From NCBI RefSeq assembly GCF_988243305.1, contig NZ_OZ547136.1: a stretch of 64,000 nucleotides of DNA. The stretch is one strand, 5' to 3'. The stretch's first letter is position 1; each line of letters opens with the position of its first letter. Shown piece after piece: positions 11,476 to 62,745 of this stretch. The notes beneath the pieces were generated by a model. The model was not told the DNA's origin, ran no database searches, and worked only from the letters and a program-made list of their open reading frames with translations. The translations under genes were made by a program, and so were the position numbers.

Positions 11476-11596
11476 ATTGCCTCCGCATAAAGGATGAATA
11501 TAAAATAAACAGGCGGTCAGTGTACGCTTAACTGGTAAAGTCGGTGCCTGCCTCCGGGTGGATCATGTATGCGGGTTCGACCCCCGCCACTGACCG

Positions 11597-12928
11597 TTAA
11601 TCAATTTGTCCTTCCAGCACCTCAAGCATTCCGCCCCGGATATCCGATTTCAGCTTATCCATATTGATAACCCGGTAAGCATTCACAATCACATCCAGTT
11701 TGTCGGGCTGATGTTTCAGACTGTACGGTGCATTAACGGCAATCTGCACACTGCCATCCTTATTTTCCACGATATACATCAGATTTTTGTGCCGTTTGTC
11801 CCACAGCACCGCTTTTGGCTTTGCCAGCATTGCCGGTAAGCGCCCGAAGTCCTCTGGCATCAGGGCGATGCCGTCATTCTGATGTTTCACACTGTCTGCA
11901 TGGAGCACATTTTTACCGCTCATCGCCAGCAGGCGGGCCGGTGGCGTTCCCGTCCGGCTTTCCACTGCCTGCGCAATGCTTTCAGTCATAAAGCCCAGCG
12001 TGCGGATATCGTTACCACCTCGCCGGGTCTGCATGATGTTTTTTGCCCAGATGCGGAACGCCAGCTGCCGCTCCGGGCTGTTGTTCATCTCCTGAACCAC
12101 CATTTCCCGTAACGCCGGGCTTTTCACCTCGATCAGTTTGCGGATCAGCGCCTGGTCTGTGCCGAACGCTGCCGAGCCGGGGTTATATGACCAGCCCACA
12201 TCCGGTGTCATGGTTCTGGTGCCATCTGAATATGTGGTCACCGGCATTTCTCTGACTTCTCCGGTCTGTTTATCCACGCCAGCCTCAACATTGCGGGTGG
12301 AGAGATGATCCTCACCGGATGAAACGGATAACCCCATTGCATCCAGACGAGCCTGAGACAATGGCCGCACACGGCAGCGGCAGTTCCAGCCATTAGGTGG
12401 GTAGTGTGTTTTCCAGAACGGATCGTCATAGCGGAATACCAGACCGTTAAGGGCGGAATGCGACGGGCGGGTACGGCTGTCCATGACCGCCACATACTGC
12501 CAGAACGGATGCGTGTCCGTGTTGTTCATCATCTGCGTGTAACGCCCGGCATTGTAAGCCACACGGGTGTTCACGTTGTAAATCAGCGCCAGACGACGGG
12601 GACTGCCCAGTTGCACTTCTTCCGCGTTACCGTCGCTGTCCACCACAATCTGCTTTCCCCACCATCCCAGCTTTTGCAGGCGTGGCGTCAGCGTGCGGAT
12701 AAATGCTTTCTGTGAAATTCCCTCATCAATGGCCCGCTGCACTTCGGCCTGTAACGTGGTCACCACATCCAGGCGTGCCGCTTTTGCTGCCGTGAATGAG
12801 CGGGCATGAACATCCGCGGCTGTTTCGAACCAGTTCCAGCTGATATGCGCCCCTTTGACACGGAAGTATGCTACCGCCTCTTTTGAGGGAAGCGTGGCGG
12901 CATAACCTAAATCAATCCCCTGTGTCAT
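11597..12928 (-). CDS. head morphogenesis protein (Mu gpF/gp30-like)
   Basis: 443-aa ORF directly downstream of portal. Confidence 0.75.
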   Translation of the reverse strand: MTQGIDLGYAATLPSKEAVAYFRVKGAHISWNWFETAADVHARSFTAAKAARLDVVTTLQAEVQRAIDEGISQKAFIRTLTPRLQKLGWWGKQIVVDSDGNAEEVQLGSPRRLALIYNVNTRVAYNAGRYTQMMNNTDTHPFWQYVAVMDSRTRPSHSALNGLVFRYDDPFWKTHYPPNGWNCRCRVRPLSQARLDAMGLSVSSGEDHLSTRNVEAGVDKQTGEVREMPVTTYSDGTRTMTPDVGWSYNPGSAAFGTDQALIRKLIEVKSPALREMVVQEMNNSPERQLAFRIWAKNIMQTRRGGNDIRTLGFMTESIAQAVESRTGTPPARLLAMSGKNVLHADSVKHQNDGIALMPEDFGRLPAMLAKPKAVLWDKRHKNLMYIVENKDGSVQIAVNAPYSLKHQPDKLDVIVNAYRVINMDKLKSDIRGGMLEVLEGQID

Positions 12929-14501
12929 CCAGCATCCCCTTCATTTCCGCAGCAAACATGGCATCACTGAGCAGCGTCATCAGGCGGGAATCATCCATTT
13001 CACGATAAAGGGCAGGCAGGTCTGCCAGCGCATCCGCCAGCCCCCGCGTTCTGATGGCATCAATGACCGGCTCCAGTACCGGGTCGATGGCCTCCTGTAA
13101 GCGGCGGGCAGGCACCGCGTCCCCCATATCATCCAGTTCATCACGCGGCGTGCTTTTCGCTTCCGGCAGTCTGGCTGACAGCGCCGTCTGCTCTGTTTTT
13201 TCCTGTTTTTCCGGTGGTGTTTCCCTGTCGGTCTGAGCCGGTTCATTGCCACTCTGACGGACACGGAATATGGCTTCACCGGGCGTGGGCTGCGGAATAC
13301 CGGTCTGCTCCCGTATCCAGGGATCAGAAATATCCATCCCCGTACTGAGCTGCATCACCGCACTGGTGATTTTGGTGATATCACCTGGTTCTTTGGTCTG
13401 GAAGCAGATACGTGGCAGACGGCGGATATCAATAGTGTGCGTGGTGTTCAGGGCGTACAGCGGATACACCAGATCGCGGTTCAGGGTTGCAGCCAGCTGC
13501 CGTAAATCAGAATCCCTGATTTCCCGGCGCACCTCGTTATGCACCTCACCCAGCGAGCGCGCGCCTTTGTCTCCGGCTTCCGTGGTCAGCGTGCCGCCGA
13601 GTATTGCTTTGGAGATGGAACGCTCCCCCCACGAAATCATGGTTTCAAATGGATCGGCCTGACCGTTTGCTGCCGCCTGAAATTCCAGCGACATCCCGGC
13701 CGGGATGATCCCGCCTGTACGTCGCCCGATATCCATCACCGCCCGCATCAGGGCGCTTTTCTGCTCCGGTGTTGCCCCGGACGGGTATTTCCCGACCTTC
13801 ATCGGCAGTCCGTACACCTCCAGAAATTCGGCCAGATCGCGCACGGAATAGTTTTTGAAAATGAACGGCCAGATAAGCGTCCTGACAAGCCCCGTTGCGC
13901 CACCGTAACCGGTCCGTGAACGTGACTGATGCACTATCCAGCCAAAAGGCTGAAACGCCACCCCGGCATGGCTGCCGTCACGCAGCCGCAGTTCGCTCAA
14001 ATCATCCGGGTTAAGGCAGAAATGCCCGCTGTCACGCCAGCGGATGGCGCGGATGATGTGCATTTTACCGAGCATCCCGTGCTCAATTTCCATGCAGGAA
14101 TAGCCCTTCAGGATGGCATCCGTGGCGTCAAACAGCATGGCATCAAACCAGTCTGCGGAATGCAGATATTCGTCGAGCATTTCCGCGTCCTTTTTCTCAT
14201 TCGCGCTGGCGTTCGGTGGCGGCTCAATACTCCATGGCACCCCCTGAATGGCAAGACGTCGCTTGCCCAGCTCCGCAAAAAGGTGGGTGTCCTTTTCTTC
14301 AATATCAGCGGCCAGATCGGACTGGGCAATCAGATCGCCACGTTCAGCCCCGCGAAGGCACTGCGCCGCCCGGTTCGGGGTGATACCCGAAGCCGGATGT
14401 TCAATATAACGGCTGGCAATCTGCGGAATATCCAGCGCGGCACTCTGCATCTCCGGGTCAAAGGAGAAAGGTTTTCCGTCAGTATCAATGATGCGTCCCA
14501 C
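12912..14501 (-). CDS. portal protein (Mu gp29-like)
   Basis: 529-aa ORF directly downstream of large terminase. Confidence 0.8.
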   Translation of the reverse strand: MGRIIDTDGKPFSFDPEMQSAALDIPQIASRYIEHPASGITPNRAAQCLRGAERGDLIAQSDLAADIEEKDTHLFAELGKRRLAIQGVPWSIEPPPNASANEKKDAEMLDEYLHSADWFDAMLFDATDAILKGYSCMEIEHGMLGKMHIIRAIRWRDSGHFCLNPDDLSELRLRDGSHAGVAFQPFGWIVHQSRSRTGYGGATGLVRTLIWPFIFKNYSVRDLAEFLEVYGLPMKVGKYPSGATPEQKSALMRAVMDIGRRTGGIIPAGMSLEFQAAANGQADPFETMISWGERSISKAILGGTLTTEAGDKGARSLGEVHNEVRREIRDSDLRQLAATLNRDLVYPLYALNTTHTIDIRRLPRICFQTKEPGDITKITSAVMQLSTGMDISDPWIREQTGIPQPTPGEAIFRVRQSGNEPAQTDRETPPEKQEKTEQTALSARLPEAKSTPRDELDDMGDAVPARRLQEAIDPVLEPVIDAIRTRGLADALADLPALYREMDDSRLMTLLSDAMFAAEMKGMLDDTGD

Positions 14502-16168
14502 TACCAGCCCCCCCGATCAAATTCATGATATGCCTCATCGTCATCACGATAACCGCCCTCCATTGCCCGCGACCGCTCCGGTAGCGCCTGACAGGCTGAT
14601 TCATCCAGGATGAAGCCCTCCATGTATGACGCCCGGTTTGCCATACAGAGCGCCACGGCAAAATCACCATGGCGGCGGGCGTTCGCAGCCGTTGCGTTCT
14701 GGTCCTTCGTGCGCCCCTTGTCGATTTGCGGGATACCATTCACTACCTTCACATGGCGCAAATCATCAAGCGTGGTCTGATGGCGGGCGACGAGGATATT
14801 CTGATCTTCAAACTCGGCTTTCAGTTTTGGCATCCACTCGCCGTACCACTTCGGCGACAACATCACGCAGTCGATGATATCCGGGCCAAAGGCCAGCAGT
14901 GCGGCCTCTGCCAGATAGCCGCCGTTACCGGTGGCGTCGAACGCCGCACCGACCAGCGCCGGAACGCGGGTCAGGATGTACATCATCACCTGTTCCTGCT
15001 GGGCATACGGCAGGTTGCGCAGCTCCACGCGAAACACCTCGCGCTTTGCCAGGGATTCGGTGATTTCCAGCAGCACAAAGCAGGACAGGTCACCGGTGCG
15101 GGCAAAGTCTTCCCCGAAGCTGAAGCGGGAACGGGGATTTAATTTCTCTAAAAGCGGTTTTAAATGTTCTTCACACCAGGTTAAAACTTCCGATTCACGC
15201 AGCCATGCGGCACGGCTGATGAAGTTGTCCGGGGCTTCAAACGTCAGAATCGGGATGTCGCGGATCATCGCCATTTCAATAAGCGCGTGGGGGATATAGG
15301 CACCGCCGGATTTTTTCGGGATACAGCCGTATTCCTCGTCGGCATCCTCACGGGTCGGGGCGTTTTTGTAGAGATCATCACGCCATTTCTGCTCGCTTTC
15401 CGGTGACCATTCCTGATCGGTGACGTAACAGATACGACGGTACAGCCCGTCCGCAATGGCATCATCCAGGGTTATGCGGTGGACGCTGTAATCCTTGCGC
15501 CCCTCGCGGGCTTCCTGAATGTACTGATTAAACAGATTATCGACGCCGTTATGCGTGGAGATAATACGCACGCGCGCGCCCCACATAGTGAGCGCCATTG
15601 CCGCCTTGAGAAGCTCATCCAGTGACTCGTGGAACGCGGCTTCATCAATCACCACATCCCCCTGAAGGCCGCGCAGGTTTGACGGACGGGAAGACAATGC
15701 CTGAATTTTGAATCCACTGTTCGGAAAGCGGATCATGTAGGTCAAAATTTCTTCTTTTTTATCCCGATCCCAGAATGTCTGCTCATACACATCAGCATCT
15801 GCCAGCTGGTTAAAGGCACGGGAGAACAGCGCGCAGGCAGAAATATATTCCAGCGCCATCTCCTGCTTTGATCCCACATAAAACACATTGCGGCCACCAC
15901 GACGCTTCGGTTTTGCAGCAGTAATGACGTTACGCCCGGCTTCCGCCCAGGTAAGACCGGTGCGGCGGGATTTCTCCGCGATGCAGACCTGACTTTCATC
16001 TGCAAACCAGCGGGCCTGATAATCCAGAAACACCGGCATATCACCGGGCAAATCAAGGCTGTCCGGCACATCCACGCCCAGCAGGGCTTTTTCACCTGAC
16101 AGATCAATTTTGCGGGGAGGCGTCATTTGCATCAGTGAAGGCGACGTTTCTCTGGCTTTGTTCATCAT
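14501..16168 (-). CDS. terminase large subunit (Mu gp28-like)
   Basis: 555-aa ORF preceding portal. Confidence 0.8.
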   Translation of the reverse strand: MMNKARETSPSLMQMTPPRKIDLSGEKALLGVDVPDSLDLPGDMPVFLDYQARWFADESQVCIAEKSRRTGLTWAEAGRNVITAAKPKRRGGRNVFYVGSKQEMALEYISACALFSRAFNQLADADVYEQTFWDRDKKEEILTYMIRFPNSGFKIQALSSRPSNLRGLQGDVVIDEAAFHESLDELLKAAMALTMWGARVRIISTHNGVDNLFNQYIQEAREGRKDYSVHRITLDDAIADGLYRRICYVTDQEWSPESEQKWRDDLYKNAPTREDADEEYGCIPKKSGGAYIPHALIEMAMIRDIPILTFEAPDNFISRAAWLRESEVLTWCEEHLKPLLEKLNPRSRFSFGEDFARTGDLSCFVLLEITESLAKREVFRVELRNLPYAQQEQVMMYILTRVPALVGAAFDATGNGGYLAEAALLAFGPDIIDCVMLSPKWYGEWMPKLKAEFEDQNILVARHQTTLDDLRHVKVVNGIPQIDKGRTKDQNATAANARRHGDFAVALCMANRASYMEGFILDESACQALPERSRAMEGGYRDDDEAYHEFDRGGW

Positions 16169-16413
16169 GCTTTACCTGTCAGAATGCTTTTGATTCGGGA
16201 CTCAAGCTCTTCAGTCATCACGTCCACGCCGCTCAACTCATCAGTGGCAGCCTCTGCCAGCAGCGAATGCAGTTGTTCCAGGGATATTTCCCCGGCAATG
16301 CTGAGTTCAGTCAACTCACGACATACCTTTATGGTTTCAGGAGGTAACTGTGTTGCAAGACTGAATGCTTTCTGATGGGCACTGCTCATCAGTGAGCGGT
16401 TATCTGTTGCCAT
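16165..16413 (-). CDS. small protein whose C-terminus copies the C-terminal motif of the adjacent terminase small subunit
   Basis: 82 aa ending ...DELSGVDVMTEELESRIKSILTGKA versus upstream protein ending ...DELRGVDGMSEQIEFRIRQMLLGKA. Confidence 0.5.
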   Translation of the reverse strand: MATDNRSLMSSAHQKAFSLATQLPPETIKVCRELTELSIAGEISLEQLHSLLAEAATDELSGVDVMTEELESRIKSILTGKA

Positions 16414-16423
16414 GATTCACCTC

Positions 16424-17005
16424 CTACGCCTTACCCAGCAGCATCTGCCTGATACGGAATTCGATCTGCTCGCTCATGCCATCCACGCCGCGCAACTCAT
16501 CGGTGACCGCATTCGCCATCTCTTCAGCAAATGCGGCCCGGATTTCTTTTTCACGCTTAATGCTGCGCTCGGCGGCACTTTCTGCACGCTGTGCCGACAG
16601 GAGGATGTCCTTAATAAGGCGCATATCCACATCGCTGTCGCTGTTCAGGGATTCGGTGGCGGCACGCAGACGGCGGTACATCAGGGCACGGGACATCTCC
16701 AGAATCAGTGCCGTGGTTTCACCGGTCGGCTTATCCCCCAGTTCGGCCATCATGGCTTTTGTCTGCTCGCGTAAATCACGCAGATTACGGGCAATCAGCT
16801 CATTACGGGAGGCTTCCCGGCTGATGGCCGCCGGTGAGAGCTGCTGCTCTTCCGGCAGACCTGCTTCACGGATCAGACGGTTGATTTCCTCGCGGATCTG
16901 GACCTGCGTCAGACGTTTTTCACGCAGCATTTCCAGCAGCGGCTTACGGATGCTGTCGGGGAGCAAATCCACCTTGCGTACACGGCCACGCGTCGGCTTA
17001 TCCAT
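16424..17005 (-). CDS. terminase small subunit-like protein (Mu gp27-like)
   Basis: 193-aa ORF upstream of large terminase. Confidence 0.6.
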   Translation of the reverse strand: MDKPTRGRVRKVDLLPDSIRKPLLEMLREKRLTQVQIREEINRLIREAGLPEEQQLSPAAISREASRNELIARNLRDLREQTKAMMAELGDKPTGETTALILEMSRALMYRRLRAATESLNSDSDVDMRLIKDILLSAQRAESAAERSIKREKEIRAAFAEEMANAVTDELRGVDGMSEQIEFRIRQMLLGKA

Positions 17006-62180: not shown

Positions 62181-62745
62181 ATTGGATGAGCCAGTCAAGA
62201 CTCAATCATTTTTTGAACAAATAGATAAATTTTGCGCAACGGCAATAATTACTGGAAAAACAGCAATAAAGATTTATTTATATCCTTGGTAATAGTTTTA
62301 TTAATTCACCCAAACAATATATTAGCACTGAATACAATTATACCTTTTTTGATTTCTGTGTCATGATAACCCCGTTATTAGCCTTTTATCGTCTTGTTTA
62401 TATTTTTTGGGCCGGCATGATGCCGGCTTTTTTTATACCTTCATTAATGTGCGCGTGATCACGCCTGCCGTTTGGCGCAACAATCATTGATACTCCCTAT
62501 CTTTCCATTCAACTCATAACATATTGATATACATTTATAATTTTCATGAATGTTTATATTTAGAATTCATAATTCTGAATTATATTAAATAGATTAGAAA
62601 CATTTTGAAATCTTTTAAATACATTTGTTACATGTAATCCTTAAAATAAAATGAACTTCATAGAATAGTATCCAAATGTGCTTTTTTTTGGATAACGGCA
62701 CTTATTGATATATTCATGAAGATTATAATCACAAGGGAATACATA

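Follow-up and report, generated by a model that had tools for sequence, protein, structure and literature searches.

An accessory open reading frame with a Gp27-like C-terminal tail at the terminase gene junction of an Escherichia coli Mu-like prophage

Introduction

DNA packaging by Mu-like transposable phages has been little characterised, and the Gp27 family (Mu gp27; PF11985, formerly DUF3486) is called the small terminase subunit (TerS) mostly by its position. The literature searched gave nothing relevant on the function of Mu gp27/DUF3486, on pac-site binding or on stimulation of the large terminase subunit (TerL). The Mu-like prophage of Escherichia coli described here lies in a stretch of 64,000 nucleotides (nt) of contig NZ_OZ547136.1 (assembly GCF_988243305.1), referred to as the window, and carries an additional open reading frame (ORF) of 82 codons, ORF82, between the genes of a Gp27-family protein and of TerL. 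The last ~31 residues of ORF82 are homologous to the C-terminal tail of Gp27, and ORF82 adjoins the TerL gene by the same ATGA overlap as gp27 does in relatives without the ORF. In contrast to Gp27, ORF82 has neither the N-terminal helical (helix-turn-helix-like) domain nor the long central helices, has no Pfam match and carries a tail substituted at G176 and L190.

Short, flexible C-terminal segments of the small subunit next to TerL are also found in P22 gp3 and in lambda gpNu1 (gpNu1 C-terminus with gpA N-terminus). These tails have no sequence relationship to the one described here, and docking in the Mu-like case is proposed from sequence. The terminase specificity domains were mapped with lambda/21 hybrids, for which the hybrid loci L045 and L049 described below are a parallel. 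Satellites encode small proteins that redirect or inhibit packaging via terminase subunits (SaPI Ppi, PICI Rpp and SaPI TerS; Staphylococcus aureus pathogenicity islands and phage-inducible chromosomal islands). The likeness is conceptual only: the satellite proteins act on the TerS of the helper and are unrelated in sequence, while ORF82 is encoded by the phage itself. Junction ORFs and morons at mosaic boundaries of phage genomes, to which ORF82, a phrog_30922 protein, may be compared, are likewise small ORFs present or absent between conserved genes, with alternative occupants of the site. ORF82 differs from them in having no promoter or terminator and in the unusual, apparent in-frame capture of the 3' end of an orthologue of its upstream neighbour. 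In P22, the C-terminal tail of TerS is needed for TerL binding (PMC7672466), whereas the tail of PaP3 TerS does not mediate association with TerL.

Results

The tail shared by ORF82 and Gp27

ORF82 residues 52-82 align with residues 163-193 of the neighbouring Gp27-family protein with 18/31 identities, 24/31 positives and no gaps (BLASTP with composition adjustment, E=3e-10). A preceding sequence-only reading had proposed that the two C-termini share a tail. Its ORF coordinates and quoted C-termini were exact, and the last 31 residues are indeed homologous. The similarity is significant in the DNA as well, where the two 90-nt tails are 67% identical and reach a local alignment score of 33, compared to 7.9 +/- 1.3 in 2000 shuffles. 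The stretch is not of low complexity, and a similarity of mere composition does not account for the composition-adjusted match. The two tails are direct copies on the same strand, 259 nt apart; a repeat scan at default stringency did not report this 67%-identical repeat. The profile of phrog_30922, built on ORF82 relatives, matches ORF82 end to end (residues 2-82 on profile positions 2-82 of 82, E=6.9e-52) and Gp27 at residues 162-193 (E=6e-8). PF11985 does not match ORF82 at the gathering score of 28 bits, while the neighbouring 193-amino-acid (aa) protein reaches 116 bits. When the ORF82 family was compared to the Gp27 family with hhalign, only ORF82 48-82 was aligned with Gp27 159-193; the idea that ORF82 as a whole derives from the C-terminal half of Gp27 by divergence was rejected on this ground.

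The tail of the Gp27-family protein (tail 1) contains the family-invariant residues G176, I185 and G191 and the near-invariant L190 and A193. In the tail of ORF82 (tail 2), all variants have Val at the position of the invariant Gly176, Thr at that of the near-invariant Leu190 and Ser for the Arg of the DELRG motif, while I185, G191 and A193 are kept.

The N-terminal module of ORF82 and its relatives

The N-terminal part of ORF82 (N-module) is related to other small ORFs at the same junction. Residues 4-46 match the Salmonella-type 65-aa protein (ORF65; BLASTP E=4e-7), and the homology to junction ORFs reaches about residue 55. A profile search retrieved only the 82-aa proteins of E. coli, a rare 67-aa protein (ORF67) and the 65-aa proteins of Salmonella. 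No member of the Salmonella family from this search has a Gp27-like tail, and its length is constant at 65 aa; the rare E. coli-like 67-aa variant is without the tail, too. A phmmer search of 1.84 billion representatives found the ORF82 family itself plus P0132, an ORF67 protein, only. With tblastn against 50,697 phage records, merely the tail was matched, and no deposited phage genome encodes ORF82; in exhaustive protein searches, it was found in E. coli only. Since the N-module is homologous to junction ORFs and the 3' end is gp27-like, ORF82 is a chimera, made up of an N-module of the junction-ORF kind and a diverged 3' end of gp27 whose stop codon overlaps the start of TerL.

AlphaFold2 (AF2) predicted helices at residues 3-21, 25-39 and 45-60 of ORF82 (predicted local distance difference test, pLDDT, 68-87), a disordered loop (60-67) and a terminal helix (68-79). 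The end of this model mirrors the turn-plus-helix end of the Gp27 monomer model, in which an N-terminal helical domain (11-80, pLDDT ~88) is followed by long helices (96-171), a turn and a C-terminal helix (179-192). The layout of the Gp27 model (mean pLDDT 69) is compatible with a TerS; a Foldseek search of the PDB gave no match at E<1, and a profile search against PDB sequences returned nothing. The assignment of Gp27 as TerS rests on position and annotation. By position, being directly upstream of TerL with an ATGA overlap, ORF82 resembles a TerS as well, yet a protein of 82 aa with three short helices and a tail helix, no homology to the Gp27 body and no family match does not otherwise qualify as one. 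Searches of Pfam, NCBIfam and PHROGs and a Foldseek search of BFVD were uninformative about the function of ORF82, and none of the PADLOC defence models matched ORF82, ORF65 or ORF67 at E<=1.

The GGAGG preceding ORF82 overlaps the last base of the gp27 stop codon TAG (16424-16426). In a consensus scan only, no sigma-70-like site was found between 15800 and 17700 and no terminator flanks ORF82 on the gene strand; the ORF82 region has no Rfam family and no convincing terminator. With no promoter or terminator of its own, ORF82 cannot be classed as an autonomous moron.

Divergence between the window (16370-16413, minus strand) and L088:2511-2560 (MATDNRSLMSSAHQKAF vs MEKNIRALIISARHEAF) has a local hot spot in the first ~16 codons of ORF82, with 81% nt identity in a 100-nt block and 92-100% in the neighbouring blocks. 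Several IMG/VR copies (L011, L013 and L016, position 3593) start with GTG instead of ATG, and their second codon is changed from Ala to Val.

Distribution of ORF82 and states of the gp27/TerL junction

Among 5,426 complete E. coli genomes, 229-230 have the prophage type, and a full ORF82 is present in only 24 of these; the remaining E. coli prophages of this type match the tail part only, as the end of gp27. Mu, D108 and SfMu have no ORF between genes 27 and 28. The presence of the small ORF in related Mu-like phages, a check proposed by the sequence-only reading, is thus confirmed for a minority of E. coli prophages and not for these three phages. ORF82 is restricted to one lineage, where it occupies a recombination-prone junction.

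For a comparison of junctions, 80 IMG/VR loci plus Mu and others were extracted, 66 of which were scorable. The stop codon of gp27 overlaps the TerL start in 43/66 (gap -1 or -4) and abuts it exactly in five more. In the ORF-less form, exemplified by L002, a Mu-like element inside the Stx phage LC727881, gp27 ends ...DELRGVDGMSEQLESRIKGILLGKA, with the stop overlapping the TerL start. This ORF-less prophage occurs in O157 and further STEC strains. ORF82 is present at the junction in L009-L016 and L088. Locus L004 carries ORF67 (P0132), which has the same Shine-Dalgarno signal, start and residues 1-~55 and no tail; a spacer of 120 nt separates it from a TerL that differs at the N-terminus. The signal is found in L008 (3582-3615) as well, where, compared to L004:3990-4324, it is followed by the first 11 nt of the junction ORF (ATGGCAACAGA) and then by ~14 nt before the TerL start. 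This deletion scar, a derivative of the L004 form, indicates that the junction ORF can be lost. Salmonella-type junction ORFs of 65 and 87 aa (ORF87) are found in L032 and L031, respectively, and ORF82, ORF65 and ORF87 all keep the stop/start overlap with TerL. More distant Mu-like phages have unrelated small ORFs at the same place (L067:3576-3898, 63+43 aa; L071:3582-3788, 68 aa, beginning MGIKKPSPPKILQYFKY...; L071/72), which makes the junction a recurrent site for small insertions.

In ORF87 of L031 (3590-3853), the end before the stop reads ..FVGKTS, and the final ~24 nt are similar to the ancestral gp27/TerL junction (p~0.005); ORF67 of L004 (4001-4204) ends in ..RRGKT. These ends may be shorter remnants of a captured gp27 3' end, on marginal evidence.

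Compared to L002, the window is 95-98% identical in the flanks (56-60/60 in sliding windows), while a patch at ~16526-16110 is either absent from L002 or only 65-78% identical (39-47/60). The second half of the Gp27 tail, ORF82 and TerL codons 1 to ~17 all lie within this patch. Further into TerL, the window and L002 share 98% identity in the 480 C-terminal residues, whereas the N-terminus differs.

Relationship of the two tails

Over 90 nt, tail 2 is 78% and tail 1 76% identical to the tail of L002, while the two tails of the window share 67%. The tails of Mu, Salmonella-type and other enterobacterial Mu-like phages fall into the same range (59-78%), which means that tail 2 and tail 1 are as diverged as gp27 tails from different genera. 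As tail 2 is closer to L002 (78%) than to tail 1 (67%), the two copies are not each other's closest relatives, as would be expected after a recent local tandem duplication. The possibility that the L002 tail is the product of an unequal crossover between the two tails of the window was rejected, since the half-by-half identities (81/69% and 79/76%) show no chimeric pattern.

A recombination of two parents would be the most economical reading of these sequences. One parent would have been a phage with a gp27 (IEF-type tail) followed by an ORF, the other a diverged phage in which the 3' end of gp27 abutted TerL. Recombination would have joined the ORF in frame to the resident gp27 3' end, which would have stayed on TerL while the ORF module and the upstream gp27 with its own tail were placed in front of it.

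Constraint on ORF82

Segregating changes were counted across six ORF82-bearing loci. While gp27 has 33 synonymous and 0 nonsynonymous changes and TerL 49 and 14, ORF82 has 15 synonymous and 24 nonsynonymous ones. Constraint on ORF82 is relaxed: its ratio of nonsynonymous to synonymous changes (24:15) differs strongly from that of gp27 and TerL together (14:82; Fisher p=1e-7) and falls short of the neutral expectation by a narrow margin (p=0.04; N-module alone, p=0.19). Tail 2 accounts for five synonymous and five nonsynonymous changes, whereas tail 1 has no amino-acid changes at all. Pairwise ratios of nonsynonymous to synonymous substitution rates (dN/dS) of ORF82 are 0.1-0.5, with 0.1-0.3 among closer variants. 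The loss of (near-)invariant residues and the relaxed constraint suggest that the tail of ORF82 no longer does the job of a Gp27 tail.

ORF82 keeps 82 codons even in variants of only 79% amino-acid identity, and the two variants of other length have in-frame deletions. Together with the GGAGG 6 nt upstream and the ATG or GTG start, these are signs of a real gene. Frameshifted copies are found in assemblies (P0010 and P0011).

Tail type of Gp27 and type of TerL

The tails of Gp27 fall into two classes, ..DELRG.DGMSE.LE.RI..LLGKA (GKA) and ..EKIVKQAGLTAE.AA.IK.QILGIA (GIA). In all distinct loci examined, the tail class matches the class of TerL (18 GKA and 35 GIA rows, no mismatch); the identities of tails and TerLs were measured for 21 of the loci. 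TerLs of the GKA class have an extra N-terminal segment (..PRKIDL...LGVD..), which is absent from those of the GIA class. Two hybrid loci, L045 (2983-5204) and L049 (2974-5192), were compared with L069/L086. The Gp27 body of L045 is 97% identical to that of L069 (GIA class), yet its tail is of the GKA class. Its TerL is 69% identical to that of the window, to which TerL of L069 is only 47% identical. L049 shows the same pattern, with a Gp27 body 68% identical to that of L069. The DNA breakpoint in the hybrids is at Gp27 residue ~160-165, right after a conserved EKEIRAAFA motif.

From these data, the last ~30 residues of Gp27 are hypothesised to be a separable module matched to the type of TerL and a candidate TerS-TerL interface; most likely, the tail would be the TerL-specific docking element of Gp27. 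The premise of the sequence-only reading that the tail docks to TerL is backed indirectly by the co-segregation of tail and TerL type and by the two hybrid breakpoints, and it is tempered by two caveats. The tail physically adjoins TerL, and linkage alone thus favours co-inheritance; furthermore, the conserved motif upstream of the tail is an obvious crossover site. Part of the conservation of the extreme C-terminal 'LG' may also reflect the ribosome-binding region of TerL rather than the protein.

Discussion

We lean, with moderate confidence, towards the explanation of ORF82 as an accessory ORF under weak constraint that the phage can do without, with a Gp27-like tail that is a recombination scar kept together with the native initiation and coupling context of TerL. 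ORF82 would be translated from its own strong Shine-Dalgarno site within the late operon and would terminate at the ancestral ATGA overlap, by which TerL would keep its native translation-initiation region and the coupling to an upstream ORF. With the native start context of TerL retained in this way, the tail would mainly be a scar, tolerated or useful at the level of DNA or translation. A protein function of whatever kind would reside in the N-module and would be dispensable for the phage. Since the Gp27 tail likely docks to TerL, ORF82 may retain some residual affinity for it, but conserved positions of the ORF82 tail have drifted. We infer the translational-coupling rationale as well as a weak or absent binding of TerL by ORF82.

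Several points weigh against this explanation. ORF65 of Salmonella keeps the overlap with TerL without having a tail, and coupling alone thus fails to explain why 90 nt of tail were retained. The dN/dS of tail 2 (0.2-0.4) is somewhat below neutral (p=0.06) and the helix-turn-helix layout of the ORF82 tail is preserved in the AF2 model; a protein-level role for this tail is possible. The fast evolution of ORF82 could also result from diversifying selection rather than relaxation. A donor lineage with a >90% identical tail and TerL N-terminus was not found, and the events may have run either way, with ORF82 as the ancestral form and ORF67 as the derived one or in the opposite order.

A role of the tail in packaging, as envisaged by the sequence-only reading, would make ORF82 a decoy or adaptor that binds TerL via its tail and either competes with Gp27, thereby tuning the assembly of terminase or the initiation of packaging, or tethers the three-helix N-module to TerL, and that is made in step with TerL. 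We regard this as unlikely, although it draws on much of the same evidence: the tail module always travels with the TerL type (18 GKA and 35 GIA loci without mismatch), the hybrids L045 and L049 switch lineage at the beginning of the tail, and the strong Shine-Dalgarno site and the ATGA overlap would keep ORF82 and TerL in step. The layout of turn and amphipathic helix is kept with I185, G191 and A193, the dN/dS of the tail is below 1, and the TerS tail of P22 is needed for TerL binding (PMC7672466). However, TerS tails are not TerL binders in every phage, as PaP3 shows, and the residues replaced in ORF82 are the invariant Gly176, the near-invariant Leu190 and the Arg of DELRG. The tail of ORF82 gains amino-acid changes, whereas the true Gp27 tail in these genomes is unchanged; homologous N-modules function, or at any rate persist, without a tail; and the whole ORF is lacking in ~90% of near-identical prophages as well as in Mu, D108 and SfMu and is deleted in L008. 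Considerably less probable to us is the further-reaching version in which ORF82 is a phage microprotein with a captured TerL-docking peptide, co-translated with TerL and occupying the TerS-binding site. Such a protein could time or limit holoenzyme assembly, tether the three-helix module or mask TerL from host sensors that recognise terminases. It would represent a previously undescribed self-regulation of a phage packaging motor and would pinpoint the TerS-TerL interface of Mu-like phages.

The relaxed constraint, with a nonsynonymous to synonymous ratio near neutral, might also mean that ORF82 is no functional gene, but a translated or untranslated recombination spacer which is being lost. 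Its minority distribution, the deletion derivative L008, the frameshifted copies P0010 and P0011 and the lack of any family, fold or defence-system match fit this idea. It is nevertheless quite improbable in view of the conserved Shine-Dalgarno site and start codon (ATG or GTG), the constant 82 codons down to 79% amino-acid identity with both length variants in frame, the pairwise dN/dS of 0.1-0.3 among closer variants, and an N-module which is recognisable across E. coli and Salmonella prophages and constant at 65 aa in the latter. As for the partial tandem duplication put forward by the sequence-only reading, the duplicated gp27 3' end is genuine homology and stands, while a simple local event is not supported by the identities (67% vs 78%), the N-module unrelated to Gp27 and the divergent patch. 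A more elaborate form, in which the 3' end of gp27 was duplicated in situ in an ancestor and diverged for long, with the intervening sequence becoming or being replaced by the N-module and with occasional gene conversion, has little probability in our judgement. It would fit two direct copies 259 nt apart on one strand, and some ORF82 variants have Val56 and Phe72 as in the neighbouring Gp27 tail (..AVTDEL.., ..EFRI..), by shared ancestry or conversion. The copies are, however, no closer to each other than tails of different genera, tail 2 is nearer to the tail of a phage without the ORF, the N-module has no trace of Gp27 ancestry and is found elsewhere without the tail, and simple recombination of the two does not explain the L002 tail (81/69%, 79/76%).

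Taken as a scar or not, the locus and its relatives are a natural experiment in a poorly understood packaging system, and they offer the last ~30 residues of Gp27 as a testable candidate for the TerS-TerL interface. ORF82 would illustrate how a small protein with an inherited partner-binding peptide can arise by recombination where two genes are tightly coupled. Should its tail still be able to bind TerL, ORF82 would lend itself directly to probing or inhibiting terminase assembly; otherwise, it would be a clean case of a mosaic scar preserved for the translation start context of the downstream gene.

Organisation of the locus and additional observations

The window contains an E. coli Mu-like prophage, in which the genes discussed here are transcribed in the order gp27, ORF82, TerL; ORF82 is downstream of gp27 and directly upstream of TerL (Table 1). 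E. coli 102651 harbors an annotated, apparently complete prophage with 99.4% identity, extending from the transposase genes A and B through the tail genes, in which ORF82 is WP_000179787.1, labelled 'hypothetical protein'. E. coli STEC299 likewise carries a 99%-identical prophage.

Table 1. Positions of the genes, tail copies and signals around the gp27/TerL junction in the window
Feature	Position	Strand	Remarks
DUF2730 protein	17602-17291	(-)	first of the block in transcription order
gp26-like winged-helix protein	17298-17008	(-)	NCBIfam VpaChn25_0724
Gp27-family protein, 193 aa	16424..17005	(-)	Pfam PF11985 Phage_Mu_Gp27, E=3e-33; phrog_426 'terminase small subunit', E=9e-55
Tail copy 1, Gp27 residues 163-193 (MANAVTDELRGVDGMSEQIEFRIRQMLLGKA)	16427..16519	(-)	BLASTP alignment
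Shine-Dalgarno sequence GGAGG of ORF82	16420..16424	(-)	sequence; 6 nt before ATG
ORF82, 82 aa	16413..16165	(-)	between gp27 and TerL
N-module, ORF82 residues 1-51	16261..16413	(-)	predicted three-helix bundle; without Gp27 homology
Tail copy 2, ORF82 residues 52-82 (LAEAATDELSGVDVMTEELESRIKSILTGKA)	16168..16260	(-)	BLASTP alignment
ATGA overlap	16165..16168	(-)	ORF82 stop TGA 16165-16167, TerL start ATG 16166-16168
Large terminase TerL (Mu gp28-like, 555 aa)	14501..16168	(-)	phrog_2 'terminase large subunit', E=6e-43
Mu-type portal	14501-12912	(-)	downstream of TerL
Divergent/mosaic patch compared to ORF-less relatives	16110..16526	(-)	sliding identity, window vs L002

TerL of the window was identified by PHROGs only, with zero matches in Pfam-A or NCBIfam, and RefSeq annotates it as 'hypothetical protein' in E. 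coli genomes. The entry for its orthologue in Mu (Mup28, NC_000929) reads 'putative portal protein', though Mup29 is the portal. In one Logan assembly, a fusion protein of gp26 and gp27 was predicted (P0013, 291 aa; ..KKPRARGVTMDKPTRG..), caused either by a 1-nt indel at the gp26/gp27 overlap or by a sequencing error.

According to a near-identical prophage in NZ_CP189662, the prophage extends from the start of the window, which lies inside the baseplate genes, to roughly 29.8 kb. ARAGORN found no tRNA anywhere in the window; in a near-identical prophage, RefSeq has a 'tRNA-OTHER' at L089:25798-25885 (~window 11516-11603), which lies on the opposite strand and is flanked by the Mu F-like and G-like genes. 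The small RNA genes DsrA (53922-54008, minus strand) and RseX (62345-62434, plus strand) were detected above the Rfam gathering scores, and the part of the window that contains them is host chromosome.

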